From positions 1-26,314 of the forward strand of contig JAGABK010000068.1 of the NCBI GenBank assembly GCA_017614625.1: a stretch of DNA of 26,314 nt, in the 5' to 3' direction. The notes under the pieces were generated by a model that made no database searches, had not been told where the DNA came from, and saw only the letters and a list, made by a program, of their open reading frames with translations. Below are positions 2,599-22,156 of the stretch, piece by piece. Position 1 is the stretch's first letter. The number at the start of each line of letters is the position of its first letter. The translations under genes and the position numbers were made by a program. The stretch comes from Spirochaetales bacterium. Its GTDB lineage: Bacteria; Spirochaetota; Spirochaetia; Sphaerochaetales; Sphaerochaetaceae.

Positions 2599-4356
2599 TC
2601 AGACCGACACCGAGAAGCCCAGCGTCAGCTGGATGTCCGCCTCGTGGTCGGAATACTCCCTGGTGGCCTTGGTGTAGCCCCACCTGTTGACCCAGTCCAG
2701 TTCACCTTCGAACGAGACCCCGGGCCAGCTGAACAGCCTGTCCAGGTCCGCTTCGAACTCCAGTCCGCACACGAGGCTCCGGCAGATGACGTCTCCGGAC
2801 GGGGTCTTTCCCGCGTAATTCGCATCGTCCTCGTTGTTTCCGCTCGTGCTGTGGCTCATGAAGATGTTCATGACGCCGTGGTCGGCGAACCTTCCGAACA
2901 GGCTGACCTTCCAGTGCTCCAGCGACGTGTACGTGCTTCTGACCTCAAGCAGTCTGCAGTCCCCTCCGTACGGGAAGCCTATGTAGTCGAAGAACGGCAC
3001 GTGGCCGCCTACGAAGGTCCCGTTGGAGAATGACCAGTACCTGTAGCACCTGACGAAATCCACTATGTCCCTCCTGTACAGGAGCGGCGTGGTCTGCGCG
3101 AACTCGGCGTAGGATGAAAGGACCCCGTTGCCAAGGGCATTGGTATACCTGATTCCGGCCACGAAACCTGAGGAGTCGCTCTGGCTGGTGCCCTCGTGCG
3201 GAGCCCTTGCCTGGTCCAGCGCGTACTGGCCGTACACCTCGAGACCGGGCATGACCGCCCAGTTGATGTCGACATAGGCCAGGGCGTTGAACATTCCGCG
3301 GTTGTTCAGGTTGTGGAAGATGAACGCCGGGTTGAGATACTGCAGGTCGAAGGTGTCGTACCTGTACATGACGTTCTCGCTCACGGTCAGCGAGACCTTG
3401 TCCAGTATCCTGAAATTCAGGGTGTGGATCATGAAGATCCTTCCCTCATCCTGCTCCGTGTGCTCGTTGTCCGAGACTATCGTGTTCAGGAAGAGAAGCA
3501 CCCAGTCGTACTTGAAATATTCGCCGAACAGTGTCAGGCGTGCATAATCGCTGAAATGGTGGCCGTCCACCAGCATGTTCCCGACGCTTGCGTTGCCCAG
3601 GCTCAGAACGTCCCTGTTGATCGAGAAGTTCCAGTTGTCGCCGCCCAGGGACAGCACGGCCCGTCTGGGCCAGATGAACGAGAAGTGCTCGGTGTTGAAA
3701 TAGACGTTGGTGAAGAATGCCCGGGTGAACTGGTTGGACTGCTTCACGTGCGCGGCGTTGCTGTCCGGCTCTATCGCATACGAGGCCACATAGTGGTCGT
3801 TGGAATCCAGGTTGCCGTAATAGTACTCGAAGACATCGTCCTGGTCCGCCCTCTTGTAGCGGTAATGGAGGTCGCTTGCGGTGTAGAAGTTCTCTCCGCT
3901 GGTGAACTCGAAGTTGAACTTCATGAGGCTCTTGCGCTCATTGTAGCTGCGCTCCCAGTCGTCCCCCGTGGTGAAATCGTCCTGGTTCGAATGGGCGTAC
4001 ATCTCCAAGGCGAAGTCAACTCCCAGCGTGAGCTGGAAGTCATCGCCGAACTGCCACCTGAGGCCCTCGCCGAGAATCGAGAGGATCTCGTCGTACAGCC
4101 CGGAGGCTGCCGCGCCCAGAGCGTCGGGATCGATCCTGTCGAGGATCCTTCTGGCCTCCGCGTCGGACCACGGACGGTTGGTGGACGGTCTTGCAAGTCC
4201 GCACAGGGCGTAGAGGGCGTCCATGTCTTCGTACAAGGGGGAATCCAGCGGATATATTATCGCTTTCACGGGTTCTGATTCGGAGGCTGACACGGTTGCC
4301 AGGCAGAATGCGAGCATCACGGCTGTCAGCAGGGTTGCAACGGCTTTCCTTTTCAT
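2599..4356 (-). CDS. Wzi-like outer-membrane beta-barrel protein, paralog 2, 585 aa (alternative start 4374)
   Basis: Signal peptide MKRKAVATLLTAVMLAFCLATVSA. N-terminal helical motif YEDMDALY..CGLARPSTNRPWS, then NRDVLSLGNASVGNMLVD, HTLNFR, LNPAFIFHN, EVYGQYALDQ, and terminal DIQLTLGFSVSV. ATG 4374 would overlap the CotH stop as ATGA. Confidence 0.75.
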   Translation of the reverse strand: MKRKAVATLLTAVMLAFCLATVSASESEPVKAIIYPLDSPLYEDMDALYALCGLARPSTNRPWSDAEARRILDRIDPDALGAAASGLYDEILSILGEGLRWQFGDDFQLTLGVDFALEMYAHSNQDDFTTGDDWERSYNERKSLMKFNFEFTSGENFYTASDLHYRYKRADQDDVFEYYYGNLDSNDHYVASYAIEPDSNAAHVKQSNQFTRAFFTNVYFNTEHFSFIWPRRAVLSLGGDNWNFSINRDVLSLGNASVGNMLVDGHHFSDYARLTLFGEYFKYDWVLLFLNTIVSDNEHTEQDEGRIFMIHTLNFRILDKVSLTVSENVMYRYDTFDLQYLNPAFIFHNLNNRGMFNALAYVDINWAVMPGLEVYGQYALDQARAPHEGTSQSDSSGFVAGIRYTNALGNGVLSSYAEFAQTTPLLYRRDIVDFVRCYRYWSFSNGTFVGGHVPFFDYIGFPYGGDCRLLEVRSTYTSLEHWKVSLFGRFADHGVMNIFMSHSTSGNNEDDANYAGKTPSGDVICRSLVCGLEFEADLDRLFSWPGVSFEGELDWVNRWGYTKATREYSDHEADIQLTLGFSVSV

Positions 4357-4370
4357 GGGCGCAGTATACC

Positions 4371-5852
4371 TCATAATGATTCTATGTACGAGTCCATCCA
4401 TTCCATCTTGGACCCGAGCCACTGGAGGACACGGCTTTCCGTGGCCCCGTCCTGTCTGTTCCACCGCCTGTCGTTCATCTCCCTTGCGGCGTCGATATCA
4501 TGGAACTTGTCTGCCAGAATGTCGAATGCGTCTTCAAGTCCGGCCTTCTTGCTGTTCCACCTGTCCTTCAGGGCGGCCACGAACGCGGGATCCCTGACCA
4601 GCTCCCGGAACCAGTAGTTCCTCTCCCTTCCCGTAACGACCTCGTTTCCGAGGAACAGGATCGTCTTGTCGAAATCCCAGTTGGGCCCCATGTGGATTTT
4701 CCCGTCGGCGGGATTGTAGTAGAAATAGGTCGATGTGAGGAATCCTGCTTCGAAATTTCCCATGAATTCATTCACCAGATACCAGTCGATGAAGGACGGG
4801 ACGTCCAGGTAATCCCTGTAATCCGCACCCGAATCACCGAACAGGGCGGCCTCGAACCGGTTGACCACCTGCGTCGCATGTTCGGCTATGGCCTTGCGCG
4901 TCCAGTCGCCCTCGACCTCGTCCAGGTCCGGGTCCTTGAAGCTCAGATGGGCTCCGTACATCGTGGCCGTTGTGTTGCCCCTTCCGTTGAACGAGACCTC
5001 CATGATGAAGCCGCCGTCGTACAGGTCGACCTTCCCGTCTCCGTTGTTGTCGTTTTCCGGATCCTTCGTAAGCTCTGCGATGTCGGGGATGTCGACGCGG
5101 TTGCCTTCTATCTTTATCGATTCGGCAATTACGTAGCAGCCCGCATAGTCCCCGTTGACCACGAGGTTCACGAACTCGTACTTCGGCTCCCATTCGGCTC
5201 CGGAGTTGAAGATCGTCCTTCCGATGTACGAGGCGAACCAGTTGCCCATCATGGAGCTGTCCGTGTCGTTTGAGATTACGGACCACTTCTTGCTCTTCTT
5301 CATGCCCAGGACCTTGCTCTTCGAAGGCAGCTTGAAGTTCATGCCCTTCTTCTCATGGTCGAACCAGGAGCTGTTTCCCCTGCCCTTGACGGTGCATTCG
5401 GAATTCAGGTCCTCCGTGCCGTCGGCCTTGAGGATCCTTATGTCGGCATCGACATATTCGTTTCTCGATGCAATCTTATCTCCCGACTTTGTGTTCACGT
5501 AAACGGTGGGCAGGCCGGTGTATGCAAGGACGTATTCCTTTGTGAAGAGAATCTCGTCCGAAGACCCCGTGACAACGCAAGTATAGCTCCGCACGGCAGG
5601 CTCGGCGAACGCCTCGGCCGCATAGGTCTGTCCGTCATGGACCTGCACCTCTTCCAGATACCAGCGGTAGTGGGCTGCGGAACCGACTGCAGGACAGGTC
5701 AGTTCGACCGAACCGCCGTCCACGCTGAGGACGAAACCGGAAAGGTCCTTCTCCTCCTCCCAGACCACCTTCAGGTGGAAGAGGTCGCAGGAGCAGATGA
5801 GAAACAGAATCAGCATTGAAACAACCGTCAGAACAGATCTTCTTCCCGTCAT
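4371..5852 (-). CDS. CotH kinase-family lipoprotein with N-terminal Ig-like domain, copy A, 493 aa
   Basis: ATG 5852 has SD GAGGT and is preferred over TTG 5864. Lipobox ILFLICS-C. CotH motifs TGLPTVYVNT, VKGRGNSSW, KKGMNFKL, LGMKKSKKWSVISN.TD, FVNLVVNGDYAGCY..AESIK, MGPNWDFD. Confidence 0.88.
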   Translation of the reverse strand: MTGRRSVLTVVSMLILFLICSCDLFHLKVVWEEEKDLSGFVLSVDGGSVELTCPAVGSAAHYRWYLEEVQVHDGQTYAAEAFAEPAVRSYTCVVTGSSDEILFTKEYVLAYTGLPTVYVNTKSGDKIASRNEYVDADIRILKADGTEDLNSECTVKGRGNSSWFDHEKKGMNFKLPSKSKVLGMKKSKKWSVISNDTDSSMMGNWFASYIGRTIFNSGAEWEPKYEFVNLVVNGDYAGCYVIAESIKIEGNRVDIPDIAELTKDPENDNNGDGKVDLYDGGFIMEVSFNGRGNTTATMYGAHLSFKDPDLDEVEGDWTRKAIAEHATQVVNRFEAALFGDSGADYRDYLDVPSFIDWYLVNEFMGNFEAGFLTSTYFYYNPADGKIHMGPNWDFDKTILFLGNEVVTGRERNYWFRELVRDPAFVAALKDRWNSKKAGLEDAFDILADKFHDIDAAREMNDRRWNRQDGATESRVLQWLGSKMEWMDSYIESL

Positions 5853-5860
5853 GGCCCACC

Positions 5861-6457
5861 TCAAATCACATACTTGAGCGAAACGCCCAGGATTCCGGAG
5901 AAGAATATGCCGGGAAGGCCCTTGTCCTCGGCAACGACCGAATGGAGATAATGGGGTACCACCAGATAATCAGCCTGCAGGGCAAGGAATCCTGCGATTT
6001 CCACTTCCACTGCGGCCTTGAACATGAATGTCCTGAGCATTAGTTCGGAGGGATATTCCGAGACATACTTCAGCCGCTTCAACAGCAGTCCGCCGGAAGT
6101 CACAACGACCTTCCCGTCATCCTGCCTCTTGGAGAATTCGAGGTTGATTCCCGCTCCGGCCTTCAGGGCCACCGGACCGGCCACTTTGAACCTGAAGCAC
6201 AGATACGTGGTGGTCATCACCTTGTCCTGTATCCCGACGTCGAGTTCAAGTCCCACCAAATCCTTCCAGAAAAGGCCCGCCTCCAGCCCGTATACGAAGC
6301 TGTCCGCATCCTTGAGGTTTTCGGAATTGGTGAAATCATGGTCGAACGGCCTGTACTCCGCACGCGGTCCCACGGAGAAGGAAACCGACGCAACCGCGGA
6401 AGACAGAACCAGGAAGAGCAGCAGAACGACAACCGGGAATGCTTTCAAACGCTTCAT
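5861..6457 (-). CDS. Small (198 aa) signal-peptide protein, predicted outer-membrane beta-barrel
   Basis: Start reassigned to ATG 6457 (MKRLKAFPVVVLLLFLVLSSAVA). Alternating hydrophobic strands (FVYGLEAGLFW, VALKAGAGINLEF, LALQADYLV) and terminal GILGVSLKYVI. The stop abuts the CotH RBS. Confidence 0.7.
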   Translation of the reverse strand: MKRLKAFPVVVLLLFLVLSSAVASVSFSVGPRAEYRPFDHDFTNSENLKDADSFVYGLEAGLFWKDLVGLELDVGIQDKVMTTTYLCFRFKVAGPVALKAGAGINLEFSKRQDDGKVVVTSGGLLLKRLKYVSEYPSELMLRTFMFKAAVEVEIAGFLALQADYLVVPHYLHSVVAEDKGLPGIFFSGILGVSLKYVI

Positions 6458-6463
6458 GACGCA

Positions 6464-6469
6464 ATTATA
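6464..6469 (-). promoter_or_regulatory. -10 box of a probable leaderless promoter for the small-barrel/CotH operon
   Basis: Minus strand TATAAT, exactly 6 nt (TGCGTC) before ATG 6457; no SD. Confidence 0.55.
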
Positions 6470-6518
6470 AAGCATAACGGTCAGGAATTGAACCAAAAGG
6501 AATATTATCCCCTTTTTG

Positions 6519-6582: not shown

Positions 6583-8367
6583 ATGAAAAAGCTGATTACC
6601 GTCCTGCTTCTGGCAGCACTTGTCCTGACTTCCGCTTTCGCCTATTCGAACCAGCAGAAGATCTATTCCGTGGACTCCGGCATCTACAAGGCCATGGAGA
6701 CACTGTACATCATGGCGGGAAAGGCCATGCCGTCCTCGTCCGGCCCCTGGAGCGAAGCGGAGCTCCAGCTGATGCTCGCAAGGATCGACAGGTCCTCCCT
6801 GTCCGAGGCTGCGCAGAAGTACTACGATTACATAAGCGCGGAAATCACATCCGAGCCAAAGCGCCAGTACGGCGACAACTTCGCCATGCAGTTCGGTTTC
6901 GAGATTGCGATCGAGGGCTATTTCCACACCGACAGCGACAATTTCACCCAGAACGAAGACTGGTTCCACAATTATGCGGACAGGCAGAAGTTCCTGAACT
7001 TCACGTTCGAGACCTGGCCCACGGACAACTTCTACGGCTATTTTGAGTTCTCTCTGGCCAACGGAATCATTCTCATGGACGGTAGCGGAAACAACGAACT
7101 CTACCAAAATACAATGTCAATCAACATTCCTGTAATGAATTCGCTTCTTTTCCTCGGAGAAGACCTTTTCAATGGTTTCGACTGGTCGTTCCCCAAACGG
7201 GCATTCGTTGCCGCAGGCGGAGAGCACTGGTCACTGATGGCCGGAAGGGACAAGCTTTCATGGGGCGGCGGCGAGACGGGTAACATGATGTTCTCGGATT
7301 CCTTCCCGCTGCACACGATGGTCAGGTTCAACACATTCTTCAACGCCTTCAAATACTCCATCGTCGGAACGGTCTATCCTTTCAGTGCCGCACCGCAGGG
7401 ACAGTTCACAAGCATGGACGGCTACAAGGCGCTTGTCGCCCACCGTCTGGAGTTCAATCTCTGCAAGGAGAAGGTCGGTCTCATCATAAACGAAGCCTGC
7501 ATGTTCTGGTCGAATCCGGCAATCGGACAGGATTTCTCCATTGCCCAGATAAACCCGTTCGGTTTCATGCACAACGAATATATAGCCAACAATGCGAATT
7601 CCCTTCTGGTTTTCGAGGCGAACTACACACCGCTTGCAGGCCTGAATATCTACGGCCAGTTGGCGGTTGATGAGTTCAGAGGCCCGGGTGAACCGAAGGA
7701 GAATCCGTCGGCATTCGGCTTCCTCGCAGGCGTGAAGGGCGCATTCGCAGCAGGAAGCGGAATCATGACAGGCTCGTTGGAATTCGCAAAAACCGATCCC
7801 TATCTTTTCCTCCGCGGTCTTCATTACTATGGAGGACCTTCATACGGCAACGAGAAGGTAGGCTACGGATACGATGCGATCTACAGAAGCTTCGTGATGG
7901 GCAACTCGGTTGTGTACTCAAGACAGTTCGTGACATACACATACGGGAACGACCTTATCCTCTTCGATGGCAGGGTGAACTATGAGAAGGCCGGTATCTT
8001 CAAGGTCGGATTCGAAGCCATGTACATGAAGCACGGCTCAATGGATGTCTCAAGCCCCTGGGGCAAGTACGACGGATCCCAGACGGACGAAACGCCCGAG
8101 GTCTCGACGCCTACGACATACAACGTGTTCGATTCCAATGATTACACAATCGGAACCGCCGCGAACAACTACGCAGACGGAGTTCTTATCCAGACACATG
8201 CCATTGAGCAGAGAATCGTCCTCTCGCTCACAGGCGAGTATTTCGTGGACGGATGCTTCAGCCTGAACCTCGCCGCCGACTACCTGATCATCAAAAACAA
8301 GGGCAATGTGGCGGACAACAATGCTTCGGACCTTCAGCTGACATTCGGACTGAAGTATTCTATCTGA
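6583..8367 (+). CDS. Wzi-like outer-membrane beta-barrel protein, paralog 3, 594 aa
   Basis: SD GGAG; signal peptide MKKLITVLLLAALVLTSAFA. Motifs IYKAMETLY..AGKAMPSSSGPWS, AGRDKLSWGGGETGNMMFSD, AHRLEF, INPFGFMHN, NIYGQLAVDE, terminal DLQLTFGLKYSI. Confidence 0.78.
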   Translation: MKKLITVLLLAALVLTSAFAYSNQQKIYSVDSGIYKAMETLYIMAGKAMPSSSGPWSEAELQLMLARIDRSSLSEAAQKYYDYISAEITSEPKRQYGDNFAMQFGFEIAIEGYFHTDSDNFTQNEDWFHNYADRQKFLNFTFETWPTDNFYGYFEFSLANGIILMDGSGNNELYQNTMSINIPVMNSLLFLGEDLFNGFDWSFPKRAFVAAGGEHWSLMAGRDKLSWGGGETGNMMFSDSFPLHTMVRFNTFFNAFKYSIVGTVYPFSAAPQGQFTSMDGYKALVAHRLEFNLCKEKVGLIINEACMFWSNPAIGQDFSIAQINPFGFMHNEYIANNANSLLVFEANYTPLAGLNIYGQLAVDEFRGPGEPKENPSAFGFLAGVKGAFAAGSGIMTGSLEFAKTDPYLFLRGLHYYGGPSYGNEKVGYGYDAIYRSFVMGNSVVYSRQFVTYTYGNDLILFDGRVNYEKAGIFKVGFEAMYMKHGSMDVSSPWGKYDGSQTDETPEVSTPTTYNVFDSNDYTIGTAANNYADGVLIQTHAIEQRIVLSLTGEYFVDGCFSLNLAADYLIIKNKGNVADNNASDLQLTFGLKYSI

Positions 8368-8420: not shown

Positions 8421-9158
8421 TCAGCCTATCAGCATCGACGCCGCGTCGTCGTCTATGAACAGATACCACTGCGGGTGCGTCTTGAGCAGCGTGGCGGGAA
8501 CCATATTGTTCACTTTCTGCGTTATAGTGTCATAGACGGCTTTGGCTTTGACCTTGTGGGGCACGACGGACACTATGGCCCTACACGCCATGATCTGCTT
8601 CGGGAGCATCGAGATGGCCTGTTTCGGGACATCGTCCTCCGTTGCGAACCAGCCCTCGCCCACCTGCTGCATGCGGCACTTGTGGTCCAGGTTCACGACC
8701 CTGTAGGCCTCGGTCGCATCGAAGTCCGCCGGCGGGTCGTTGAACGCGATGTGCCCGTTCTCGCCTATTCCGATCAGACCCACATCGACCTCCTCGCTGC
8801 GCAGGGCCTTTGTGAGTTCCTCAATGTTGGCCTTCACATCGCCTTCTCCGTTGACGAAATGTGCCGCAGCCGGATGGACGATGTTGACGAACCTCTCCTT
8901 CAGATACTTGCGGAACGATGCGATGTGGCTCTCCGGAAGACCCACGTACTCGTCCAGATGGAACATCTCGACCCTGGACCAGTCCACGTCGAGCTTCACC
9001 AGGGCCTCGAACATCTCGAACTGGCTTGCACCGGTCGACAGAATGATCCTGGCATGTCCCTTACTTGCTATGGCTTCATTGATGAGCTGGGCGGCCTTGA
9101 TTGCCGCCTTGCGTCCGTTCTCCGCTGCTATGGCGGAAACAGAAATGTTGATGTTCAT
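8421..9158 (-). CDS. nagB: Glucosamine-6-phosphate deaminase family protein (NagB/6PGL family), 245 aa
   Basis: ATG 9158 with SD GAGGTG. Motifs LSTGASQ, FHLDEYVGL, GIGENGHIAFNDPP, PATLLKTHP. It sits directly downstream of nagA. Confidence 0.8.
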   Translation of the reverse strand: MNINISVSAIAAENGRKAAIKAAQLINEAIASKGHARIILSTGASQFEMFEALVKLDVDWSRVEMFHLDEYVGLPESHIASFRKYLKERFVNIVHPAAAHFVNGEGDVKANIEELTKALRSEEVDVGLIGIGENGHIAFNDPPADFDATEAYRVVNLDHKCRMQQVGEGWFATEDDVPKQAISMLPKQIMACRAIVSVVPHKVKAKAVYDTITQKVNNMVPATLLKTHPQWYLFIDDDAASMLIG

Positions 9159-9165
9159 ATTCACC

Positions 9166-10320
9166 TCACAGAACGGCATTGCCGTCCACATAAACCTGTT
9201 TTATTCCGATGTTGCCGTCACAGACCACAAGGTCCGCGCGTTTTCCCGCCTCTATGGATCCGATCTCCCCGTCCAGACCGGCCAGAGCAGCCGGCTGCAG
9301 GCACAGTATCCTCGAGACCTCGTCCAGTCCGAGCCCCATGATGCAGTGGAGCGTCCTTGCCAGCCTGTCTCCGGTGGCCACGCTTCCCGCGAAACAGGAC
9401 CGGTCGGTGAGCTTCGCGATCCCGCCCTCTATTATGCACGGCATGCCGTTGTTCTTCGGACCCAGCACCGACGGCCCTTCGGGCATACCGGCACCTCTCA
9501 TGCTGTCGGAGCATGCGGTGATCCTGCCGTGGTCCTTGAGCTTGAAGATCATCCTCAGAAGGTCGGGCGGAAGGTGCAGTCCGTCGCAGATAAGCTCCAC
9601 GTTCATTCCGTCAATCAGATACCCGCTCTCAACTGCGCCCAGGATGCGGAAGCCTCCCCTTCTCGTGATCGTACTCATGCCGCTGTAGAAATGGGTAAGC
9701 ATGTTCAGGCCGTGGTCATAGGCCTCGGAAACCACATCGTATGTGGCAGCCGTGTGCGCCGCGGAGACCAGGATTCCGTGTGCGACCATGTCGTCGATGA
9801 AGCGCATGGCACCCGGAAGCTCCGGGGCCACGGACCATCTTCCCACAAGACCTCCGGCGGCCTCCAGCATGCGGTTGTAATGCTCCGGCTCGGGGTTGCG
9901 TATGTAACGGGGGTTCTGGGCGCCCTTCATCTCCATGTCGAAGTACGGTCCCTCGAGATGAAGAGCAGGCATCTTCGCACACAACGGCAGCCTGTTCTGC
10001 GCCTGTTCCCTGTGAATCTGCTTGAAATTCTCAAAGAAGGCCATCATTTCATCATCGGAACTGGTGAGCGTGGTCGGAAAGCAGGTCGTGGTCCCGTGCT
10101 TTGCGAGGCTCTGTGCTGCGCCCGTGATGTCGGATGCCGCGCCGTCCATGAAATCGAAACCGCCGCTTCCGTGCGTGTGCAGGTCCACGAATCCGGGCAT
10201 GATGAAACACTCCGGTTCCGGACACGGATGCTCCTTTATCCCGGTGATTCTTCCGTTCTCAAATGCGAGGGTTCCGCTGATTATCCTGTCCTTCAGGACT
10301 ATCTTTCCTTTGAGCTCCAT
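9166..10320 (-). CDS. nagA: N-acetylglucosamine-6-phosphate deacetylase, 384 aa
   Basis: Amidohydrolase motifs PGFVDLHTHG, LHLEGPY, AHT, THFYSGMS, ICDGLHLPP, SDSM, AGS, G.IEAGKRADLV. Confidence 0.93.
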   Translation of the reverse strand: MELKGKIVLKDRIISGTLAFENGRITGIKEHPCPEPECFIMPGFVDLHTHGSGGFDFMDGAASDITGAAQSLAKHGTTTCFPTTLTSSDDEMMAFFENFKQIHREQAQNRLPLCAKMPALHLEGPYFDMEMKGAQNPRYIRNPEPEHYNRMLEAAGGLVGRWSVAPELPGAMRFIDDMVAHGILVSAAHTAATYDVVSEAYDHGLNMLTHFYSGMSTITRRGGFRILGAVESGYLIDGMNVELICDGLHLPPDLLRMIFKLKDHGRITACSDSMRGAGMPEGPSVLGPKNNGMPCIIEGGIAKLTDRSCFAGSVATGDRLARTLHCIMGLGLDEVSRILCLQPAALAGLDGEIGSIEAGKRADLVVCDGNIGIKQVYVDGNAVL

Positions 10321-10327
10321 GGCCCCG

Positions 10328-10336
10328 ATTATAGCA
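10328..10336 (-). promoter_or_regulatory. Extended -10 promoter of nagA-nagB, probably leaderless
   Basis: Minus strand perfect TGnTATAAT (TGCTATAAT), 7 nt before ATG 10320; no SD. Confidence 0.7.
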
Positions 10337-10377
10337 CATTTCCGACGCTTCTTTCCAATTCCGAAGCCGAACCCCTA

Positions 10378-10405
10378 TTGTTTTTAATGATCTTTATGAT
10401 AGAAT
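10378..10405 (+). promoter_or_regulatory. Putative sigma70 promoter of the ABC operon
   Basis: TTGTTT (10378-10383), 16-nt spacer, extended -10 TGATAGAAT (10397-10405). SD GGAGG lies downstream, before ATG 10442. Confidence 0.5.
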
Positions 10406-10441
10406 TACCAAGCAATAGCATTTAATAGGAGGCTATATAAA

Positions 10442-11434
10442 ATGAAGAAAGCATTAGCAGTTCTTTTGATGCTGGCCGCTGTGTTCACAGTTTTCGCACA
10501 GGGCGCGGCAGAAGCAGATGCAGCTCAGGGCGCAAAGACCGAGAAGATGGAGTTGTACATCTACACAGGTGGAACAATCGATGAGTGTCAGGCTCTTATC
10601 GACGCATTCAATGTCAAGTATCCGAACGTAAAGTGCCAGATGGTGCAGGACAAGTCCGCCAACATCCCCACCAGAATCATCAACGGAGAGGAAGCGGATG
10701 TGATCATCCTTATCGCAAAGGAAAACCTCGATTCCATCCTCGACTACTATGTTCCCTACAAGACCGCTAACGATGCGCTGGTCGAAGATGTGTACAAGGA
10801 TTCGGAGTACAGGTATTATTCGATTTCCATGCCCCTGCAGACAATCATGTACAACACGGAAGAGGTCAAGGGCGACATGATTCCGAAGTCATGGTTTGAT
10901 CTTGCAGATCCCAAGTACAAGGGTCACATCGTTCTGACAAGCCCCTCGACCGGAAGCGGATATGCCCAGCTCTATATGCTCTACAAGCTTTCCGGAGACA
11001 ATCTCGAGCTTGCAAAGAAGATTGCAGAGAACGGAACGACATACCTTCCGGATTCAACGACAGGTCCTGCCGCTGTTGAAAGAGGAGAGTTCTGGTTCAC
11101 TCTCACAGGAGAGAAGAACGTCGCCACAGCCATGGCAAAAGGCAGTCCCGTCAACTATCTCTATCCTGAAGAGGGAACAGGCCGCAGAGTCGAAGGTGCC
11201 GGAATCATCAAGAACGGAAAGAACCTTGAAGCCGCAAAGCTCTTCATGGACTGGCTGACAAGCACAGACGGTGCGGAGACTCTCAGAAGCCTGGGAAGAA
11301 GATCCGTTTCCTCTGCAGTCGCAGGTCCCGACTATCTGCCCGCACTCAACGAAATCAACTTCTTCGAGTACAACGACGCAGAAGCCGCTTCAATCAAGAA
11401 GGCTCTTCAGGCAGAGTTCAACACATATCTCTGA
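10442..11434 (+). CDS. ABC transporter solute-binding protein, FbpA/AfuA family, 330 aa
   Basis: Signal peptide MKKALAVLLMLAAVFTVFAQG. Motifs IPKSWFDLADPKYKGHI, VERGE, YPEEGTG, IIKNGKNLEAAKLFMDWLTS. Confidence 0.88.
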   Translation: MKKALAVLLMLAAVFTVFAQGAAEADAAQGAKTEKMELYIYTGGTIDECQALIDAFNVKYPNVKCQMVQDKSANIPTRIINGEEADVIILIAKENLDSILDYYVPYKTANDALVEDVYKDSEYRYYSISMPLQTIMYNTEEVKGDMIPKSWFDLADPKYKGHIVLTSPSTGSGYAQLYMLYKLSGDNLELAKKIAENGTTYLPDSTTGPAAVERGEFWFTLTGEKNVATAMAKGSPVNYLYPEEGTGRRVEGAGIIKNGKNLEAAKLFMDWLTSTDGAETLRSLGRRSVSSAVAGPDYLPALNEINFFEYNDAEAASIKKALQAEFNTYL

Positions 11435-11455
11435 TTGCAAGACACAATCCTTCAT

Positions 11456-11490
11456 CGGGGCTGCCTGCCTGGCGGGCGGCCCTGTTTTTT
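11456..11490 (+). terminator. Intra-operon terminator/stabilising hairpin after the SBP gene
   Basis: Stem GGGCTGCCTGC/GCGGGCGGCCC (with G-U pairs) followed by TGTTTTTT. This arrangement is typical for producing excess SBP over ATPase and permease. Confidence 0.7.
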
Positions 11491-11530
11491 CCCAACCACC
11501 AATCATACCGACTAGGAGAAACTACTTCTT

Positions 11531-14385: not shown

Positions 14386-14402
14386 TCGTTGTCAAATTGC
14401 AG

Positions 14403-14436
14403 AAAAGGCCTGTACCGATCGGTGCAGGCCTTTTTT
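14403..14436. terminator. Bidirectional intrinsic terminator between the permease and the epimerase
   Basis: Stem AAAAGGCCTGTACC/GGTGCAGGCCTTTT (one G-U pair), loop GATC, with A and T tracts on either side. Confidence 0.88.
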
Positions 14437-14438
14437 CT

Positions 14439-15704
14439 TCATCCGAGAAGCTCGCAGATGAGAAGCAGGTTGCGCGTTATATGGAACGGATCCTTGACAG
14501 GAAGGGCCACAACCTTCTCCTGCGGAAGGCCTTCCCTGGTGAGGATCTGAATCCACTCCCCCACATTCCTGTCAGGATTGGGGAAATGTGAGAAAACATA
14601 GTCGAAGGTCCTGTCATGGATATCCAGGAATTCCGGGTCTCCGGTCTTTAGGTAGAACCTCAATGAAGCATACAGGGTCTCGGAATGGACCCACCAGAGC
14701 TTGTCGCCCCACCCGCCTTTGACCAGCGTCACGGTAGGCTCCGGGGAATCGGACTCGAAGACAAGCGGGTCTCCGTCGATGTTCACGAAATGCAGGATGC
14801 CGCCGTACTGCGCATCCCAGCCGGCACTGAACGCGGTCTTCATGATCAGGGCCGCTGCATCGGAAATGTCATTTCTTCCAAGAATTACAGCTGCATCATC
14901 CAGGAACCATGAATCCTCAATGGAATGGCCCGGATTGATATGGTTGCCCAGAAGCCCTGGAACACGGCTGTTGTCGCTTCCTATGACCTCATGGATGAGA
15001 GAAGACCCGTCCCTGAAGTTGTCTATGACATCACAGGCCGTCTTTTCCATGTCGGACAGCAGCCTTGAAGCGAAGGTCCGGTCGAACCTCATGGCCGCAC
15101 AGTGCAGTTCCCTTGCCACGTTGGTGAGTATCATGGGGATTCCGTGGGCCCTGTAGGCGCTTCCCAGAGGATAAGGCAGCGTATTGAACTTTCCGCTCTC
15201 CACCCTTTCGACAACGGAGAGGTAAAGGTTCTTTCCGAAAGCGTAGGCTTCTCCGTCCCCCGATGCGACGGAATAGGCGGCCATGCCGATTATCACGAAG
15301 CAGTCGGCGTAGATGCTCATGTCAAGGGTATCGTATGAACCCACCTTCTTCGGCGTCCCGTCGCGCTCCATCAGGAAAATGCAGCGCCAGTCGTCCTCTC
15401 CCATCAGGCAATGGGAGCGCAGGAACGAGTACCCGGATTCCGCAAGACGCAAGAACTCCTTCCTTTCCTCTTCTGAAAAAAGCGGGGCCTGTGTCGAGGC
15501 GAGCCGTGAGAACATCCAAAGGAAGCGTCCCTGGCTCCAGGTGTACTTGTCATGGGAGACCAGATTCTCACCCCTGTTGTCGAAACAGTTCAGATAACCC
15601 CCGAACTGCCTGTCCTCGCAGCGCGGGAGCCAGAAACCGAGGATGTTCTCCTTCAGTTCCCTTGAGTAGAAATTATACAGCTTCTTCCTGCAGGCCGGTT
15701 CCAT
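14439..15704 (-). CDS. N-acylglucosamine 2-epimerase (AGE family), 421 aa
   Basis: Motifs KYTWSQGRFLW, NPGHSIEDSWF, GWD..YGG, KLWWVHSE, KDPFHITR. Both catalytic-His motifs of AGE-type enzymes are present. Confidence 0.87.
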   Translation of the reverse strand: MEPACRKKLYNFYSRELKENILGFWLPRCEDRQFGGYLNCFDNRGENLVSHDKYTWSQGRFLWMFSRLASTQAPLFSEEERKEFLRLAESGYSFLRSHCLMGEDDWRCIFLMERDGTPKKVGSYDTLDMSIYADCFVIIGMAAYSVASGDGEAYAFGKNLYLSVVERVESGKFNTLPYPLGSAYRAHGIPMILTNVARELHCAAMRFDRTFASRLLSDMEKTACDVIDNFRDGSSLIHEVIGSDNSRVPGLLGNHINPGHSIEDSWFLDDAAVILGRNDISDAAALIMKTAFSAGWDAQYGGILHFVNIDGDPLVFESDSPEPTVTLVKGGWGDKLWWVHSETLYASLRFYLKTGDPEFLDIHDRTFDYVFSHFPNPDRNVGEWIQILTREGLPQEKVVALPVKDPFHITRNLLLICELLG

Positions 15705-15708
15705 CGAC

Positions 15709-17241
15709 TCAGTATCTTGCCCAGCCGGCCTTCACATAGCGGTCGGTTATTTCCCTGACGTAGCCGTTGAACCTTGCGCACTCGTCCGGGTCGTTGGACA
15801 CGATCTCCCAGCGGCACATGGCGTCCTCGCTTCTGGAGATGCGCTGGGCCACCTGGACCCACTTCTTTCCCTCCAGCGAGGAGGAGGCGTCGAACTCAAG
15901 CGGCAGGTTGAACCTCATGAGGCAGGCGTCCAGATCGCTTCCGTCGTCCATTTCCTTGATGACGGTTGCGCCCAAAGAGCGCATCTTCTGCTCGACCTCG
16001 TCCATGAGAAGCGGCATCTTCTCGGGAGCGGCCTCGCAGTAGAGCGGCCATTCCCTTTCCCTGAAGAGCGAGGTCTGCAGCCTGTAGGCCCTCTCGTAGG
16101 CGGCCGGGTCCTCCTTGTAGCACCTTGCGCTCAGGAGGGCGATGAACAGCGTGGACTCTATTGCGGCGAAACCCTTGGAGAAATCGTCCGGGTCGTACGG
16201 GTAGTTCATGTAGTAGTGGGCGGACTCCTCCTCCGCTGCCAGATATCCCCTGTCGCAGTTGTTGCGCAGCTTCTCCTTGATGAACGAATGCCCGTTGCGG
16301 ATGATGTGAACCTTCACCCCGGTCTTCGCAATCTCGCAGAGCGAAAGCGGAATCGCCTTGACATCGGCATAGACATCGGTCTTGGTGCCCTTGAGGATCT
16401 CGATCATCCTGCGGACGATGATGGACATGTTCAGGCCGGGGACAATCTGCTCGCCGTTGGGGGCCATGAGGTCCACACGGTCGCCGTCACCGTCGAAGCA
16501 GAAGCCGAAATCGAAGTTGCCTTCACGCATGGCGACCCTGGCAGGTGCGATGGAGGTCTCGATGATCGGATTCGGGTCGCCCTGGCGGAAGAATCCGTCG
16601 GGCACGACGTTGCGGACCTCGACCTCGGCTCCGGCGCGCTGGAAAGCAAGTGCCATCTCGCTTCCGGCCGATCCGTTGAGGAACTCGAGCATGATCCTGG
16701 TTCCCTTGAGGGTACCCTCCTTCACGCCGGAGAGCTTCATGCAGTAATCGATATAGGACTCGAGGCAGTTGATGATGACCGTCCTGCCGCGGCCGTCGCC
16801 TTCGACGCACGCTCCGCTCTTGTACAGTTCGAGGATCTTCCTGATTCCGCCGGCGGGACCGCATTCCATGGCTATGGAAGAGACCTCGGGAGCCATGAGC
16901 TTGAGGCCGATGTACTCTGCCGGGTTGTGCGAGGCGGTGACCATGATTCCGGCCGCTTCGCGGTACTGCATGCAGGTGTAGTAGAACTGGCATGTGGAGA
17001 TCGGAAGCGGATTGAGATATACGTCCAGGCCGGCCCTGCGGAGCCACAGCTCGAGGCCCTCCGCGATCTCCGGCACGTAAAGGCGCGCGTCACGTCCGAT
17101 CACGACGGCCTTCGCCTTCACGTAGTCCCTGAAATAGAGGGCCACCGCATTGAAGAGGCGGGTCTTGATCTCCGGTGTGAGATTCTTGTATTTCGTCCTG
17201 ACATCGTACTGCTTGAACATCGAGAGGTTGAGGTTTTCCAT
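15709..17241 (-). CDS. Alpha-D-phosphohexomutase (PMM/PGM-like), 510 aa
   Basis: FKQYDVR, phosphoserine loop TASHNP, metal loop FDGDGDR, sugar-binding loop EESAH. Confidence 0.9.
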   Translation of the reverse strand: MENLNLSMFKQYDVRTKYKNLTPEIKTRLFNAVALYFRDYVKAKAVVIGRDARLYVPEIAEGLELWLRRAGLDVYLNPLPISTCQFYYTCMQYREAAGIMVTASHNPAEYIGLKLMAPEVSSIAMECGPAGGIRKILELYKSGACVEGDGRGRTVIINCLESYIDYCMKLSGVKEGTLKGTRIMLEFLNGSAGSEMALAFQRAGAEVEVRNVVPDGFFRQGDPNPIIETSIAPARVAMREGNFDFGFCFDGDGDRVDLMAPNGEQIVPGLNMSIIVRRMIEILKGTKTDVYADVKAIPLSLCEIAKTGVKVHIIRNGHSFIKEKLRNNCDRGYLAAEEESAHYYMNYPYDPDDFSKGFAAIESTLFIALLSARCYKEDPAAYERAYRLQTSLFREREWPLYCEAAPEKMPLLMDEVEQKMRSLGATVIKEMDDGSDLDACLMRFNLPLEFDASSSLEGKKWVQVAQRISRSEDAMCRWEIVSNDPDECARFNGYVREITDRYVKAGWARY

Positions 17242-17243
17242 AA

Positions 17244-18098
17244 TCAGCTTTCCTTTAAAATCAGTTTTTCAATGGCCTTTGCGAAGCCGTCCTCGTCATA
17301 TCTGTCGGTCACGTAGTCGGCGATGGCCTTCACATCGTCCGGGGCGTTCTCCAACGTCACGCCAATGGCTGCATGCTGCATCATCTGGCCGTCCAGAAGC
17401 ATCGAATCGCCTATGCTCAGGACGTTGTCGAACGTGATGCCTATGCGGTCCAGCAGCACCTGCATGGCCTCTATGCAGTCCATGTCGCGGTTGAAGACCT
17501 GGATTCCCACGGGGTCCGACAGCTTGGTCCCTGCGAAAGGCATGCTGTTGAAACGGTCCTGCATGTCCTGGAACTCCTCCTCCGGGATTCCGTAGAGGTT
17601 GATCTTCTCCAGTCCTATGTTGTTCTCAAGGAAGTAGTCAGAAAGCTTTCCCTCCACGGTCACCGGCCTGCCGGATGCGTACATGTACCATACGTGGTGA
17701 GGCGGCACCGGGTATTTCCACAGATTGTCCATGACCTGTTTCTCGAAGAAAAGCTTGCCTTCGGCCGCGACCTCGCAGTAGATGCCCTTGCCTTCGAAGA
17801 CCCTGCAGATTTCCGAGCTCTGCTGTGGCGTGAACGTGCTTTTGTAGATTATCTCACCGGTCTGCCTGTCCAGGACCCTGGCTCCGCAGCAGGTGAACCA
17901 GTACCTGTATGAAGGGTCCTCGAACTGCGGCGGGAACATGTCCGCGGACCTTCCCGTGCAGGGAATGCAGACGATTCCCCTCTTCTGAAGCTCCTGCAAC
18001 GCGCGGAAGTTGCGCGGGCTGAGCCAGATCTTGTCTTTCTGAAGTGTGGTTCCGTCAAAATCCAGGGTTATCGCCTTGATTTCACAATTATCAAACAT
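17244..18098 (-). CDS. Cof-type HAD-IIB hydrolase with atypical motifs III/IV, 284 aa
   Basis: Motif I LDFDGT, motif II TGRS, and C-terminal GD...D..M...A.IGV.LENA.DDVKAIADYVT....EDGFAKAI. Confidence 0.85.
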   Translation of the reverse strand: MFDNCEIKAITLDFDGTTLQKDKIWLSPRNFRALQELQKRGIVCIPCTGRSADMFPPQFEDPSYRYWFTCCGARVLDRQTGEIIYKSTFTPQQSSEICRVFEGKGIYCEVAAEGKLFFEKQVMDNLWKYPVPPHHVWYMYASGRPVTVEGKLSDYFLENNIGLEKINLYGIPEEEFQDMQDRFNSMPFAGTKLSDPVGIQVFNRDMDCIEAMQVLLDRIGITFDNVLSIGDSMLLDGQMMQHAAIGVTLENAPDDVKAIADYVTDRYDEDGFAKAIEKLILKES

Positions 18099-18192: not shown

Positions 18193-19986
18193 ATGAAGAG
18201 AACCGCTGCCCTTGCCATCCTCGCGCTGCTTCTGATCGCGGCCCTGCCCCTGTGCGCGACCCAGGTGAAAGCAAAGACCTTTCCCCTGGATTCCGAGATA
18301 TACGACCTCATGGACGCCCTCTATTCGATCCAGGGCCTCGCCCGCCCGTCGACAGGACGCCCGTGGTCTCAGTCCGAGGCAGATCTCATCTTCTCCCGCA
18401 TCGACGGCACAGACCTGTCCCCCGCGGCGAAGAACGCATACACCCGCATTGAGGAGCTTCTGGCCGATGGCATGCGATGGGACTTCGACGACTACGGCCT
18501 TGGCGTGAAGTTGGACCTTGCCATCGAGGCCTATCTCCATTCCAATGCCGATGACTTCACGACCGATGCCGACTGGCTGCGCGGTTTCGAGGACCGCCGC
18601 CCGCTGGCGAAGCTGTCGATGGACTTCTCCGTCTCCGATTTCTTCTACACCTACTGCGACCTGCAGTACGGCTACGGGCGTGTTTCGAAGTACGACACCT
18701 TCATAGCCCTCAATCCGGACCACAGCGGCGGCCTTCTCTCCAACGACGGCTACATCGGCAGCTACAAGATGGACGGAGGATCACACATCCTGGCCTGGTC
18801 GGCCCAGTACTCCCCCGTCTTCGCAACCAACATCATCCCCAAGAGCGACCATTTCGACTTCATATGGCCCAAGCGCGCGCTGATAGCCGTAGCCGGAGAC
18901 CGGTGGAGCCTCCAGTTCGGCCGCGACAGGCTCGAGATCGGAAACTCGACCCTGGGGAACCTCCTCGTGGACAACCACACCGACTTCGAGGACTATTTCA
19001 CCGCCGCCTTCTTCAGCAGCGGCTTCAAATACCAGTGGACCAACCTCTTTCTGAACGGAATCTCGGACAACGCCGAGGTCCGTACGGACGACACCAGGAT
19101 CTTCATGATCCACACCCTGGAGTTCCGCCCGCTGAAGAACCTGTCCTTCACCATCTCCGAGGACGTCATGTTCAAGATCGCCTCGGACAACAACAGCCCG
19201 CAGGTCCTGGACTTCTCCTTCCTGAACCCGGCCTTCATCTGGCACAACCTCAACAACCGCTCGATGTTCAACGCCATAGCGTACGCAGAAGCCGCCTGGA
19301 CGCCGGTCAGGGGTCTTGAGGTCTACGGCCAGTTCGCGCTGGACCAGGCAGTGGCCCCGAACGAGAACCACGACCAGGGCGACGCCTGGGGTCTGGTGAC
19401 AGGCTCGAAGTACACCACCGTCCTCGGAAGCGGTATCGCCGTCTTCCATGCCGAGTTCGCCCACACCACACCGCTCCTGTACCGCCGCGACAAGGTCGAT
19501 TTCGTCAAGATGACCCGCTATTTCCATCTGACAACCGAAAGCCAGCTCCAGCCCGACTCGGATTACGCAAGCTTCTCCAGCAACGCACTGGTGTTCGAAT
19601 ACATCGGCTTCCCCTACGGAGGCGACGTGCAGGCGCTGGAGATCGGAGGAAAATGGATGCTGCCCGGGACTCTCAAGGTCACGGCCTACGCCAGGTTCCT
19701 CCAGCAGGGAGAGTTCAACCTCTTCGTCTCGCACAGCATGGACGGCTACAACGACAACATGCCCAACTACACGGGGAACACCCCGTCAGGAACAAACTGG
19801 ACGCGCTGCATCTTCCTCTCCTCCAATGTGGAGTACAGGATGGACAGCCTCTTCGACTGGCCGGGCGTGACGCTTGAAGCCCAGCTGGACTGGATCGGGA
19901 AATGGAGCTACGCAGCCGACACGAAAACCTATTCCGGCGGCCGCACGGATACCCAGTTCTCGATCAGTGTGAATGTGGAGATATGA
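18193..19986 (+). CDS. Wzi-like outer-membrane beta-barrel protein, paralog 4, 597 aa
   Basis: Start reassigned from 18046 to ATG 18193 (signal peptide MKRTAALAILALLLIAALPLCA). Motifs IYDLMDALY..QGLARPSTGRPWS, FGRDRLEIGNSTLGNLLVD, HTLEFR, LNPAFIWHN, EVYGQFALDQ, terminal DTQFSISVNVEI. Visibly closest to paralog 2. Confidence 0.78.
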   Translation: MKRTAALAILALLLIAALPLCATQVKAKTFPLDSEIYDLMDALYSIQGLARPSTGRPWSQSEADLIFSRIDGTDLSPAAKNAYTRIEELLADGMRWDFDDYGLGVKLDLAIEAYLHSNADDFTTDADWLRGFEDRRPLAKLSMDFSVSDFFYTYCDLQYGYGRVSKYDTFIALNPDHSGGLLSNDGYIGSYKMDGGSHILAWSAQYSPVFATNIIPKSDHFDFIWPKRALIAVAGDRWSLQFGRDRLEIGNSTLGNLLVDNHTDFEDYFTAAFFSSGFKYQWTNLFLNGISDNAEVRTDDTRIFMIHTLEFRPLKNLSFTISEDVMFKIASDNNSPQVLDFSFLNPAFIWHNLNNRSMFNAIAYAEAAWTPVRGLEVYGQFALDQAVAPNENHDQGDAWGLVTGSKYTTVLGSGIAVFHAEFAHTTPLLYRRDKVDFVKMTRYFHLTTESQLQPDSDYASFSSNALVFEYIGFPYGGDVQALEIGGKWMLPGTLKVTAYARFLQQGEFNLFVSHSMDGYNDNMPNYTGNTPSGTNWTRCIFLSSNVEYRMDSLFDWPGVTLEAQLDWIGKWSYAADTKTYSGGRTDTQFSISVNVEI

Positions 19987-20585
19987 AGCGCAAGATCCTT
20001 TTACTTCTGCTTTCCGTAATGCTTTGCATGGAATTGTCCGCAACCTTCAGCATCGACATCAGGACGGGCATCACAAAAACTGAAGCCGGTATCGGTATCG
20101 GAATCGGCAGGAACGAGCTGAAGGTCGGTTGCACGTCGGCTTATCCGAATCTGGCCTTCCACATGAAGCAGGAGGAAGACTGGCAGTTCAAGTACTATAC
20201 CACCGACATGGCCGGCCTTCTTCTGGATGCGTTCTACTACTACAATTCAATGGAAGTGGGCATGCTGTTCGGTCTGTCAGGGGAAAGCAGCGCCGTCTCG
20301 GTGCATCTGGGTCCGCAGCTGTATTGCAGCCATACTGACGGAAAGTGGATCGGAATCGACCTCACCGAAACGGACATAGGAATCAACCTTGCCGCCGTCG
20401 TGAAGGCTCACCTCTCGAAACACTTCGGTCTGAGCGTTCAATGCGGAATTCCCCTGGCGCACGTGGCGTTCTCGAAAAACCAGGAAATCTGCTTCTCAAG
20501 CATCCTCTCGGACGAACGTATACTGAAGGAAGTCCTCTATTCGGTTTCGGCAGGCCTGTTCCTTGAATTCGGAGGCGGAAGATGA
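19983..20585 (+). CDS. Small (200 aa) signal-peptide protein, predicted outer-membrane beta-barrel
   Basis: ATG 19983 overlaps the upstream stop as ATGA. Signal peptide MKRKILLLLLSVMLCMELSA; beta-strand patterns (VSVHLGPQL, IGINLAAVVKAH, FGLSVQCGIP, VSAGLFLEF). Confidence 0.68.
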   Translation: MKRKILLLLLSVMLCMELSATFSIDIRTGITKTEAGIGIGIGRNELKVGCTSAYPNLAFHMKQEEDWQFKYYTTDMAGLLLDAFYYYNSMEVGMLFGLSGESSAVSVHLGPQLYCSHTDGKWIGIDLTETDIGINLAAVVKAHLSKHFGLSVQCGIPLAHVAFSKNQEICFSSILSDERILKEVLYSVSAGLFLEFGGGR

Positions 20586-22156
20586 GACGACGTGCGATAA
20601 TCCTGCTCTGCCTGCTGTCCGTTCTCCTTCTTCCCTCCTGCACGGAATACATCCCGTTCCTGGAGGAGAAAGCCGGTTCGTTCGCATCGGTCAGCCAACG
20701 GGACGGAATCATATGCATAAGCGAGAACAACGGAGACGGCCGGGGAAGGCCCGTGACGCTGACTGCCGCCTTCAACGGAGACGGGGACCGTGAATACAGC
20801 TACCAGTGGTTCGTCTGCTCCGACGAGAGCAAGAGCGGCGGAATGAAGATCGACGGGGCGACGGAAAGGACCTACACCACCGGATACCTCGATGAGATCG
20901 GGAAAGTCTATTACTACTATTGCGAGATCACCGGAAAAGAAGGCCTCGTGAAGAAGACAAAGGAAACCAAGGTGTTCTATGTCTGCTGCACCGGACTGCC
21001 GACGCTCATCATCGACACCGAGAACAATGCGGAGATCGTGAACAAGACGGACAAGATCCCTGCGACGATCAGATACGTCTCGGCCACGCAGGACCTCGAG
21101 CTGGCATCGACGGTCAAGGGACGCGGCAACGCAAGCTGGTACTATTTCCCGAAACGGGGCTATACGATCAAGCTGGACAAGAAAACCGCCTTCGGGAGCC
21201 TTCCGAAAAGCAAGAAGTGGGTCCTGGTGTCCAATTACAACGACAAGACCCTCCTGAGGAACTGGTTCGCCTCCTTCATGGACAACACCGTCCTGGATAA
21301 CGATACCAACTGGAATCCGAGGTACATCCACGTGGACTGCATCCTGAACGGAGAATACATCGGCAACTACACCCTGGTGGAGCAGATCAGAATCGATGAC
21401 AACAGGCTGAACCTGCCGGACATCGCCGAACAGGAGGATCCCGCGGACGGAGGATTCATCCTTGAAGTCAACTGGCGCATGGACGAGGCGTACAATTTCG
21501 TATCCGACCACGGAGTGAAATTCAGCCTGAAGGACCCGGACCTCGAGGACCTGGATGCCGATCAGGCGGAAGCCGTGTTCTCGTACATCAAGGCTCTGGT
21601 CAACAACGCAGAGGATGTGCTGTACTCGGATGACTTCGACCATTTCGCCTCTTATTTCGACATCCCCTCCTTCGTGGACTGGTACATCGTCAATGAGATA
21701 GCCAAGACCTGGGACGGCAGATTCAGCACCTCCGTCTACATGTATTACGATCCGGACGATTCCCTCATCCACATGGGACCGGACTGGGATTACGACGATG
21801 CGTGGGGTGGAACCGACTCGCAAGACAGGGTCTCGACCGACGGCTTCTATCTCAACGACTGCGCATGGTACGCGCATCTGTTCAAGTGTCCGGATTTCGT
21901 TTCCGCCCTGAAGGACAGATGGAACGACAGGAAGGCGGCGATAATCGACTCCGTCAACCATCTGCAGGCCATGTCGGAGACCCTTGCCGTTTCGGCGGAC
22001 CTGAATTTCAAGAAATGGGACATCCTCGGCACAAGGGTCTTCACCTCAGCCCCGGGCTACGAGAAGAGGAAGACCTATCAGAGCGAGATCGATTTCATGA
22101 AGAACTGGATACTTGAGAGAATCGAATGGCTTGATCCTGCGATCAACGGCCTATGA
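20582..22156 (+). CDS. CotH kinase-family lipoprotein with N-terminal Ig-like domain, copy B, 524 aa
   Basis: ATGA overlap with the upstream gene. Lipobox VLLLPS-C. Motifs TGLPTLIIDT, VKGRGNASW, PKRGYTIKL, KWVLVSNYNDKTLLRN, LNGEYIGNY..VEQIR, KTWD, MGPDWDYD. Confidence 0.9.
   Translation: MRRRAIILLCLLSVLLLPSCTEYIPFLEEKAGSFASVSQRDGIICISENNGDGRGRPVTLTAAFNGDGDREYSYQWFVCSDESKSGGMKIDGATERTYTTGYLDEIGKVYYYYCEITGKEGLVKKTKETKVFYVCCTGLPTLIIDTENNAEIVNKTDKIPATIRYVSATQDLELASTVKGRGNASWYYFPKRGYTIKLDKKTAFGSLPKSKKWVLVSNYNDKTLLRNWFASFMDNTVLDNDTNWNPRYIHVDCILNGEYIGNYTLVEQIRIDDNRLNLPDIAEQEDPADGGFILEVNWRMDEAYNFVSDHGVKFSLKDPDLEDLDADQAEAVFSYIKALVNNAEDVLYSDDFDHFASYFDIPSFVDWYIVNEIAKTWDGRFSTSVYMYYDPDDSLIHMGPDWDYDDAWGGTDSQDRVSTDGFYLNDCAWYAHLFKCPDFVSALKDRWNDRKAAIIDSVNHLQAMSETLAVSADLNFKKWDILGTRVFTSAPGYEKRKTYQSEIDFMKNWILERIEWLDPAINGL

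Follow-up and report, generated by a model that had tools for sequence, protein, structure and literature searches.

Organization of the locus

The window analysed here is a stretch of 26,314 nucleotides, contig C47 of a 1.42-Mb metagenome-assembled genome (67% complete) of a Spirochaetales bacterium from the family Sphaerochaetaceae. It encodes two lipoproteins with a CotH kinase-fold domain, each gene directly preceded by that of a small predicted outer-membrane β-barrel, and five large barrels of a Wzi-like family, two of which (A and B) lie next to the CotH genes and their small barrels. The window sequence is present in sequencing runs from ruminant gut and fermentation metagenomes, and among named proteins the nearest matches to its products belong to Spirochaetales and Sphaerochaetaceae MAGs. 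In the labels used below, C stands for contigs of the source genome, L for compared loci or contigs, and G for compared genomes. The comparisons cover a family sample of 200 genomes, 26 genomes of the genus, a survey of 401 Spirochaetota genomes, and a set of 80 CotH loci from other species. The genes in question are the following:

5861-6457, minus strand: small barrel A, 198 residues; signal peptide, predicted 8-strand-type outer-membrane β-barrel; first gene of pair A
4371-5852, minus strand: CotH-A lipoprotein, 493 residues; lipobox LICSC, Ig-like domain, CotH domain
19983-20585, plus strand: small barrel B, 200 residues; signal peptide, predicted small outer-membrane β-barrel; first gene of pair B
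20582-22156, plus strand: CotH-B lipoprotein, 524 residues; lipobox LLPSC, Ig-like domain, CotH domain with all conserved residues
2599-4356, minus strand: Wzi-like A, 585 residues; core gene of the Wzi-like array
18193-19986, plus strand: Wzi-like B, 597 residues; 18-strand-type Wzi-fold barrel with an N-terminal helical bundle
933-2510, minus strand: Wzi-like 1, 525 residues; conserved partner downstream of Wzi-like A in the array
6583-8367, plus strand: Wzi-like 3, 594 residues; divergent neighbour, directly adjoining Wzi-like A in relatives
22157-23770, minus strand: Wzi-like 5, 537 residues; the sole paralogue above the Pfam Wzi threshold

The initial annotation described a trio of Wzi-like barrel, small barrel and CotH genes that occurs twice, and all nine open reading frames are found as described. 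In copy A the order is barrel, CotH, Wzi-like gene, with intergenic gaps of 8 nucleotides (barrel A/CotH-A) and 14 nucleotides (CotH-A/Wzi-like A), while in copy B it is Wzi-like gene, barrel, CotH, and both junctions are the ATGA overlaps already noted in that annotation. The junctions are spanned by independent metagenome contigs, which excludes faulty assembly as the source of the arrangement. Judging from this packing, the three genes of each copy are probably co-transcribed in the source genome. The observation of two trios is thus confirmed, with qualifications: the CotH proteins are related (34% identity between CotH-A and CotH-B), as are the Wzi-like proteins, but the gene order differs and the two small barrels have no detectable homology (no blastp match, and an hhalign probability of 9.7% confined to the signal peptide region). 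A duplicated three-gene block was dropped as an explanation on account of the latter.

The CotH lipoproteins

Both CotH proteins score well above the Pfam CotH (PF08757) cut-off of 23.8 bits (87.2 bits for CotH-A and 125.8 for CotH-B), which bears out their assigned identity, and a profile built from the subfamily finds B. cereus CotH (5JD9), with the match extending along the kinase domain. The same profile shows the N-terminal Ig-like domain, and CotH-A has a weak match to Pfam Ig_2. In both proteins the signal peptide ends at a lipobox cysteine (LLLPSC/TEY in CotH-B and LFLICSC/DLF in CotH-A, read from the sequence by eye). An extracytoplasmic lipoprotein CotH is nothing out of the ordinary in a diderm: CotH genes are carried by 53 of the 401 Spirochaetota genomes, mostly with lipoprotein signals and often as tandem lipoprotein genes.

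CotH-B keeps all 26 of the 26 invariant columns in an alignment of 35 homologues, including the catalytic-loop Asp378, which aligns with the Asp in QNFDG of 5JD9, and Asp403/Asp405 of the WDxD motif, which align with WDYD. Conservation of this kind is consistent with CotH-B being an active phosphotransferase. CotH-A fails the same check, with Glu in place of Asp378 (D378E) and Gly in place of a near-invariant Arg (R226G), both unique among the 35 aligned homologues. Both substitutions are retained in the 90%-identical CotH-A orthologues of L216 and L217, and Glu is also found at the catalytic position in more distant CotH-A relatives (L042, L051). The CotH-A sequence is 90% conserved where the neighbouring genes are conserved at 68-85%. 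The conservation pattern suggests that the Glu-carrying group is either a constrained pseudokinase or an enzyme of altered chemistry. The group comprises the window gene (4371-5852, minus strand), L216:1947-3290, L217:3158-4276, L042:7803-9296, and L051:2368-3873.

Bacillus CotH is a Ser/Thr kinase of the spore coat. The window proteins belong to the same domain family (PF08757; structures 5JD9/5JDA), and CotH-B shares with it the catalytic-loop Asp and the metal-binding Asp residues of WDxD, whereas CotH-A carries Glu at the catalytic Asp. Their host, unlike Bacillus, is a non-sporulating diderm; they are lipoproteins and have an extra Ig-like domain at the N terminus, their genes are paired with that of an outer-membrane barrel, and no substrates of CotB/CotG type were seen.

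The small barrels and their pairing with CotH

Both small proteins are likely small outer-membrane barrels of ~175 mature residues, as the following matches and models suggest. Barrel A matches Pfam OMP_b-brl with 19.5-19.8 bits (threshold 28.7), and two relatives of barrel B match the OMP_b-brl/OmpA_membrane families with E values of 0.006-0.015, also below threshold. The AlphaFold2 model of barrel A is almost all-β, with a mean predicted local distance difference test (pLDDT) of 68.5. In the ESM Atlas the neighbours of barrel A are of OMP_b-brl/DUF2715/TP0733 type, and barrel B reaches template-modelling (TM) scores of 0.64-0.74 to OMP_b-brl/DUF2715 clusters; both results serve as leads only. 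With the small 8-stranded barrels of spirochaetes (OMP_b-brl, DUF2715, and the OmpW-like TP0126/TP0733) the window proteins thus share their size, the signal peptide and a β-rich prediction, and those families include the nearest ESM Atlas clusters. They differ in that their matches fall below threshold, in the very small size of their families, and in the tie of the barrel-B relatives to CotH. Only 6-7 members of the window barrel families were found, with 6 representatives of barrel B among 1.8 billion proteins; a metagenome scan with the single barrel-A protein gave no match, and with a barrel-A alignment it returned two loci.

The link between the small barrel and CotH, which the initial annotation had pointed out, recurs in relatives. 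For the three relatives of barrel B that could be placed (34, 26 and 24% identity), the next gene downstream encodes CotH, either overlapping by 4 bp or separated by 3 bp, and their flanks lack Wzi-like genes; in L015 and L016 a barrel-B relative is likewise directly upstream of CotH. Orthologues of barrel A (79-80% identity) adjoin CotH-A orthologues beside Wzi-like 3 in L216 and L217. In G124, a genome of the same genus, the contig with the barrel-A-like and CotH-A-like genes is not the one with the Wzi-like A/B array. (A 407-residue protein encoded downstream of the CotH-A-like gene in G124 was considered as a Wzi-like protein and rejected, the resemblance being limited to a common N-terminal motif.) Other small β-rich open reading frames with signal peptides adjoin CotH in L041, L046 and L051. 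Barrels also accompany CotH lipoproteins in other members of the phylum, as Porin_O_P in L098 and as a DUF2490-like protein in L092. Sequence change is much faster in the barrels than in the CotH proteins paired with them, with 24-34% against 38-61% identity for the same pairs of loci. Taken at the level of gene order, a small barrel and a CotH lipoprotein appear to be a unit.

A distant, 183-residue relative of barrel B (hhalign probability 95.8%) is encoded at L005:5351-5902 and L220:4023-4574, on the minus strand in both cases, divergently from a Wzi-like B orthologue and with no CotH gene nearby.

The Wzi-like barrels

The Wzi fold was checked for Wzi-like B. Its AlphaFold2 model, calculated from a 34-sequence alignment, has a pLDDT of 87.3 and a predicted TM score of 0.86, and combines a large barrel with a helical bundle at the N terminus. 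The best Foldseek match in the PDB is E. coli Wzi (2YNK; E = 2.2e-15, target-normalised TM score 0.69), followed by AlgE (2.7e-9), chitoporins, and OprD-type channels, in line with the expectation that the large proteins model as Wzi-type barrels. At the sequence level the relation is much fainter. Neither Wzi-like A nor Wzi-like B matches the Pfam Wzi family (PF14052) at E ≤ 0.01 (Wzi-like A, in the genome scan, scores 16.6 bits, below threshold), so their identity as Wzi proteins rests on the fold. Wzi-like 5 is the only paralogue above the cut-off (35.5 bits against 30.1), and Wzi-like 3 has a weak match. Sequence searches of the PDB gave no match with the single window proteins, nor with a profile of the Wzi-like family.

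E. coli Wzi is an outer-membrane lectin of the group 1 capsule. Wzi-like B has the same architecture of helical bundle and large barrel, but is only ~12% identical to it and sub-threshold in Pfam. The spirochaete family is also expanded to at least nine paralogues per genome, organized in arrays, and no Wza/Wzb/Wzc-type families were found by Pfam among the open reading frames of the window, to which that search was limited. In this saccharolytic lineage, the likeliest role of the Wzi-like proteins is that of general or sugar-related outer-membrane barrels.

Wzi-like A and Wzi-like B are the closest paralogues of each other, as had been noted (45% identity over 583 residues, against 25-31% to the other paralogues, by blastp); the motifs quoted earlier for the two are present in the family consensus. 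The family is found in 185 of the 200 family genomes and in 24 of the 26 genus genomes, usually in several copies, and the source genome has at least nine, with further ones on contigs C111, C152, C205, C189 and C91. CotH of the window type (CotH-B type) is present in 15 and 3 genomes of the same two samples, respectively.

In twelve genomes of the same genus the array runs from dnaJ-spoU through Wzi-like B and Wzi-like 3 to Wzi-like A and Wzi-like 1, without CotH, and six metagenome contigs also have orthologues of Wzi-like B, 3, 5, A and 1 in CotH-free dnaJ-spoU arrays of this kind. Orthologues of Wzi-like A (55-73% identity) are followed there by those of Wzi-like 1, and the orthologues of Wzi-like B (60-73% identity) have no adjacent CotH; altogether Wzi-like A/B orthologues occur without CotH in more than 20 genomes of the genus. 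A single array in L010 combines orthologues of Wzi-like A (64%), 3 (64%), B (73%) and 5 (44%). The empty sites can be recognized as well: Wzi-like 3 directly adjoins a divergent Wzi-like A in G080 and G009, and it is precisely this intergenic position that barrel A and CotH-A fill in the window, while Wzi-like B and Wzi-like 5 abut in L010 and enclose barrel B and CotH-B in the window. Because CotH-free relatives share both genes, the kinship of Wzi-like A and B goes back, as read from these orthologues, to an old duplication that took place before the CotH insertions, and not to a co-duplication of the trio. By the same comparison the Wzi-like genes belong to a core outer-membrane array and stand beside the cassettes as bystanders, not as members, which contradicts the three-gene module with a cognate Wzi barrel that had been put forward.

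In a close relative, L016 (CotH-B 85% and Wzi-like 5 91% identical), a RelB/YafQ toxin-antitoxin pair (1767-2295) lies between CotH-B and Wzi-like 5, which suggests that the site is insertion-prone. In relatives the Wzi-like arrays beside dnaK-dnaJ-spoU are often near Bac_transf/DUF6675/PAP2 genes. In genus g7, L043:3862-10505 (also L044 and L045) has a contiguous run of a Wzi-like 615-residue protein, a GT4 glycosyltransferase, a CotH lipoprotein, a Bac_transf initiating transferase, and DUF6675; the 615-residue protein is placed with Wzi-family clusters in the ESM Atlas (a lead only).

Proposed model and its alternatives

We favour, with moderate confidence, a reading in which two diverged cassettes of a small barrel and a CotH lipoprotein were inserted into an old Wzi-like array, and in which each barrel partners its own CotH at the outer membrane. 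Each cassette would consist of a small outer-membrane barrel gene closely followed by the gene of an Ig-like and CotH kinase-fold lipoprotein. Pair A would have landed between two divergent genes, upstream of Wzi-like A, and pair B downstream of Wzi-like B, and the Wzi-like genes would be co-transcribed with the cassettes merely through the site of landing. The barrel may serve as the membrane partner of its lipoprotein, either as an anchor or as an export or display device, and translational coupling would provide the two proteins in a fixed proportion. Through such a complex the outer membrane or the cell surface would gain an extracytoplasmic phosphotransferase, and there CotH-B could modify a protein or glycan of the envelope or the environment. 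CotH-A may be a low-activity or pseudokinase variant, impaired or repurposed.

Several observations weigh against this model or narrow it. The small-barrel fold is assigned from sub-threshold Pfam matches, an AlphaFold2 model of medium confidence, and ESM Atlas leads. In the family sample, roughly every second CotH locus lacks an adjacent small barrel, and among the 80 CotH loci of other species no neighbour is related to the window barrels or Wzi-like proteins; the pairing is therefore lineage-restricted. No partner of CotH is shared across these 80 species, the neighbours being heterogeneous. In L005 and in G102, which is of the same type, a barrel-B-like gene stands beside the Wzi-like B orthologue without CotH, and in genus g7 a Wzi-like gene is two genes away from CotH in a locus of polysaccharide type. 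The predicted complex of barrel B and CotH-B scored 0.27 against a mark of 0.32, which counts neither way.

A single envelope system of three parts, in which the Wzi-like barrel and the small barrel work with the CotH lipoprotein to phosphorylate, display or anchor a surface polymer, is quite improbable. The tight packing and probable co-transcription of both trios, the Wzi fold of Wzi-like B, the g7 run, the relatives' arrays abutting Bac_transf/DUF6675/PAP2 genes, and the lower Pel-dependent aggregation of S. intermedius upon deletion of a secreted CotH homologue (aggregation is affected there by CotH and DUF4956-type members; PMC12345266) would all suit such a system. It is opposed by the many same-genus genomes with Wzi-like A/B orthologues and no CotH, the different gene order of the two copies, and the barrel-CotH pairs without Wzi-like neighbours, including the G124 pair on its separate contig. 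None of the 80 loci from other species has a relative of the window-type Wzi-like proteins beside CotH. The trio is thus not co-located in other genomes, a test that the initial annotation had itself named, and by it the three-part reading is already largely refuted. A looser link between Wzi-like and CotH genes through surface-polysaccharide islands may exist; the g7 run, the Bac_transf/DUF6675/PAP2 adjacency and the CotH-free barrel-B-like gene are read as surface genes gathering in the same islands, and not as a defined system. A different role for the window pairs, as the outer-envelope halves of a module of VTC, DUF4956, outer-membrane barrel and CotH, with exported polyphosphate as the phosphate source and the barrel as its conduit, draws on the source genome itself. 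On contig C27 (about positions 1-3900; L128, L129) genes for VTC and DUF4956 are followed on the same strand by a third CotH gene, whose 730-residue product has an N-terminal transmembrane anchor. In other Spirochaetota all four parts are contiguous: L098:4975-8966 encodes VTC, DUF4956, a CotH lipoprotein and a Porin_O_P protein (36 bits), and in L092:3137-7236 a DUF2490-like barrel gene precedes VTC, DUF4956 and a CotH lipoprotein. The VTC/DUF4956/CotH set was noted earlier at Gram-positive pel loci (PMC7112168). As in that set, the CotH homologues of the window are exported and their host does not sporulate, but Pfam searches of the window found no VTC or DUF4956 near the cassettes, and barrels of ~175 residues are of OmpA size, too small for phosphate porins of the Porin_O_P type. 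Of the 15 family genomes that encode CotH of the window type, 5 alone have VTC, and 6 of the 10 genomes that lack it are at least 92% complete, so that a dependence on polyphosphate is not supported for the subfamily. We know of no CotH-fold enzyme for which the use of polyphosphate has been demonstrated, which also counts against this role, and we regard it as rather unlikely.

The CotH lipoproteins could also be mainly non-enzymatic surface proteins, acting as adhesins or ligand binders, with the barrel as a mere anchor and the kinase chemistry of no relevance. A role as adhesin or ligand binder is proposed for the CotH invasins of Mucorales. The CotH-A clade, with Glu in place of the catalytic Asp and yet more strongly conserved than its neighbours, fits this view, as do gut and rumen relatives fused to Ig, Big, FN3 and other surface domains, and the spread of the subfamily across rumen Treponema, Fibrobacter, Bacteroidales and Clostridia, a distribution often shown by adaptive surface genes. 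Against it, CotH-B and 33 of the 34 other aligned homologues keep every residue of the catalytic signature, which speaks for enzymatic activity being preserved in most of them, and this explanation too is quite doubtful. Fam20A regulates Fam20C, and by analogy the Glu-variant CotH-A might be a pseudokinase that regulates CotH-B, with the barrel exporting or holding the surface kinase, the whole being a system for phosphorylation of envelope glycans or rumen proteins; this extension of the model of two inserted cassettes we consider very improbable.

Under the model of two inserted barrel-CotH cassettes, the window is best classed as carrying, in two copies, a lineage-specific variant of exported-CotH gene sets. 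Gut and rumen bacteria commonly export CotH-fold proteins, but we know of none from a diderm with a known substrate, phosphate donor or location. A translationally coupled small barrel and CotH lipoprotein offers a compact handle on how such an enzyme is retained at the outer membrane. The Wzi-like barrels, as a large core outer-membrane family of the Sphaerochaetaceae, merit a study of their own, and their genes should be annotated neither as parts of a CotH system nor as capsule genes.

Other features of the window and related CotH loci

The remaining genes of the window are the following:

8421-18098, both strands: nagB/nagA, ABC importer, epimerase-like, PGM/PMM and HAD genes
24224-26125, minus strand: spoU and dnaJ

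The first of these blocks separates the two cassettes and consists of nagB, nagA, an ABC importer (binding protein, ATPase and fused permease), a GlcNAc-2-epimerase-like gene, PGM/PMM, and a HAD phosphatase. The block from nagB to the HAD gene is absent from the Wzi-like array of relatives.

Scans for promoters and terminators returned no more sites than in shuffled controls. In two rumen metatranscriptome runs, short near-identical contigs cover parts of Wzi-like B, Wzi-like 3, the ABC, PGM and HAD genes, and the 3' end of CotH-B. CotH-A and both small barrels have no contig in these runs, which consist of assembled contigs, so that the absence is uninformative.

CotH lipoprotein genes have other neighbours elsewhere. 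In L118:4963-9894 and L119:4325-10315 they alternate with genes for ~340-residue signal-peptide proteins (no Pfam match), with overlapping stops and starts, and both runs end in a DUF4956 gene. In L177, L180 and L209 (Flavobacteriia and Marinilabiliales) the adjoining genes encode GH16-like proteins, recognized by motif only, and this neighbourhood hints at a glycan-related context of CotH in several Bacteroidota.

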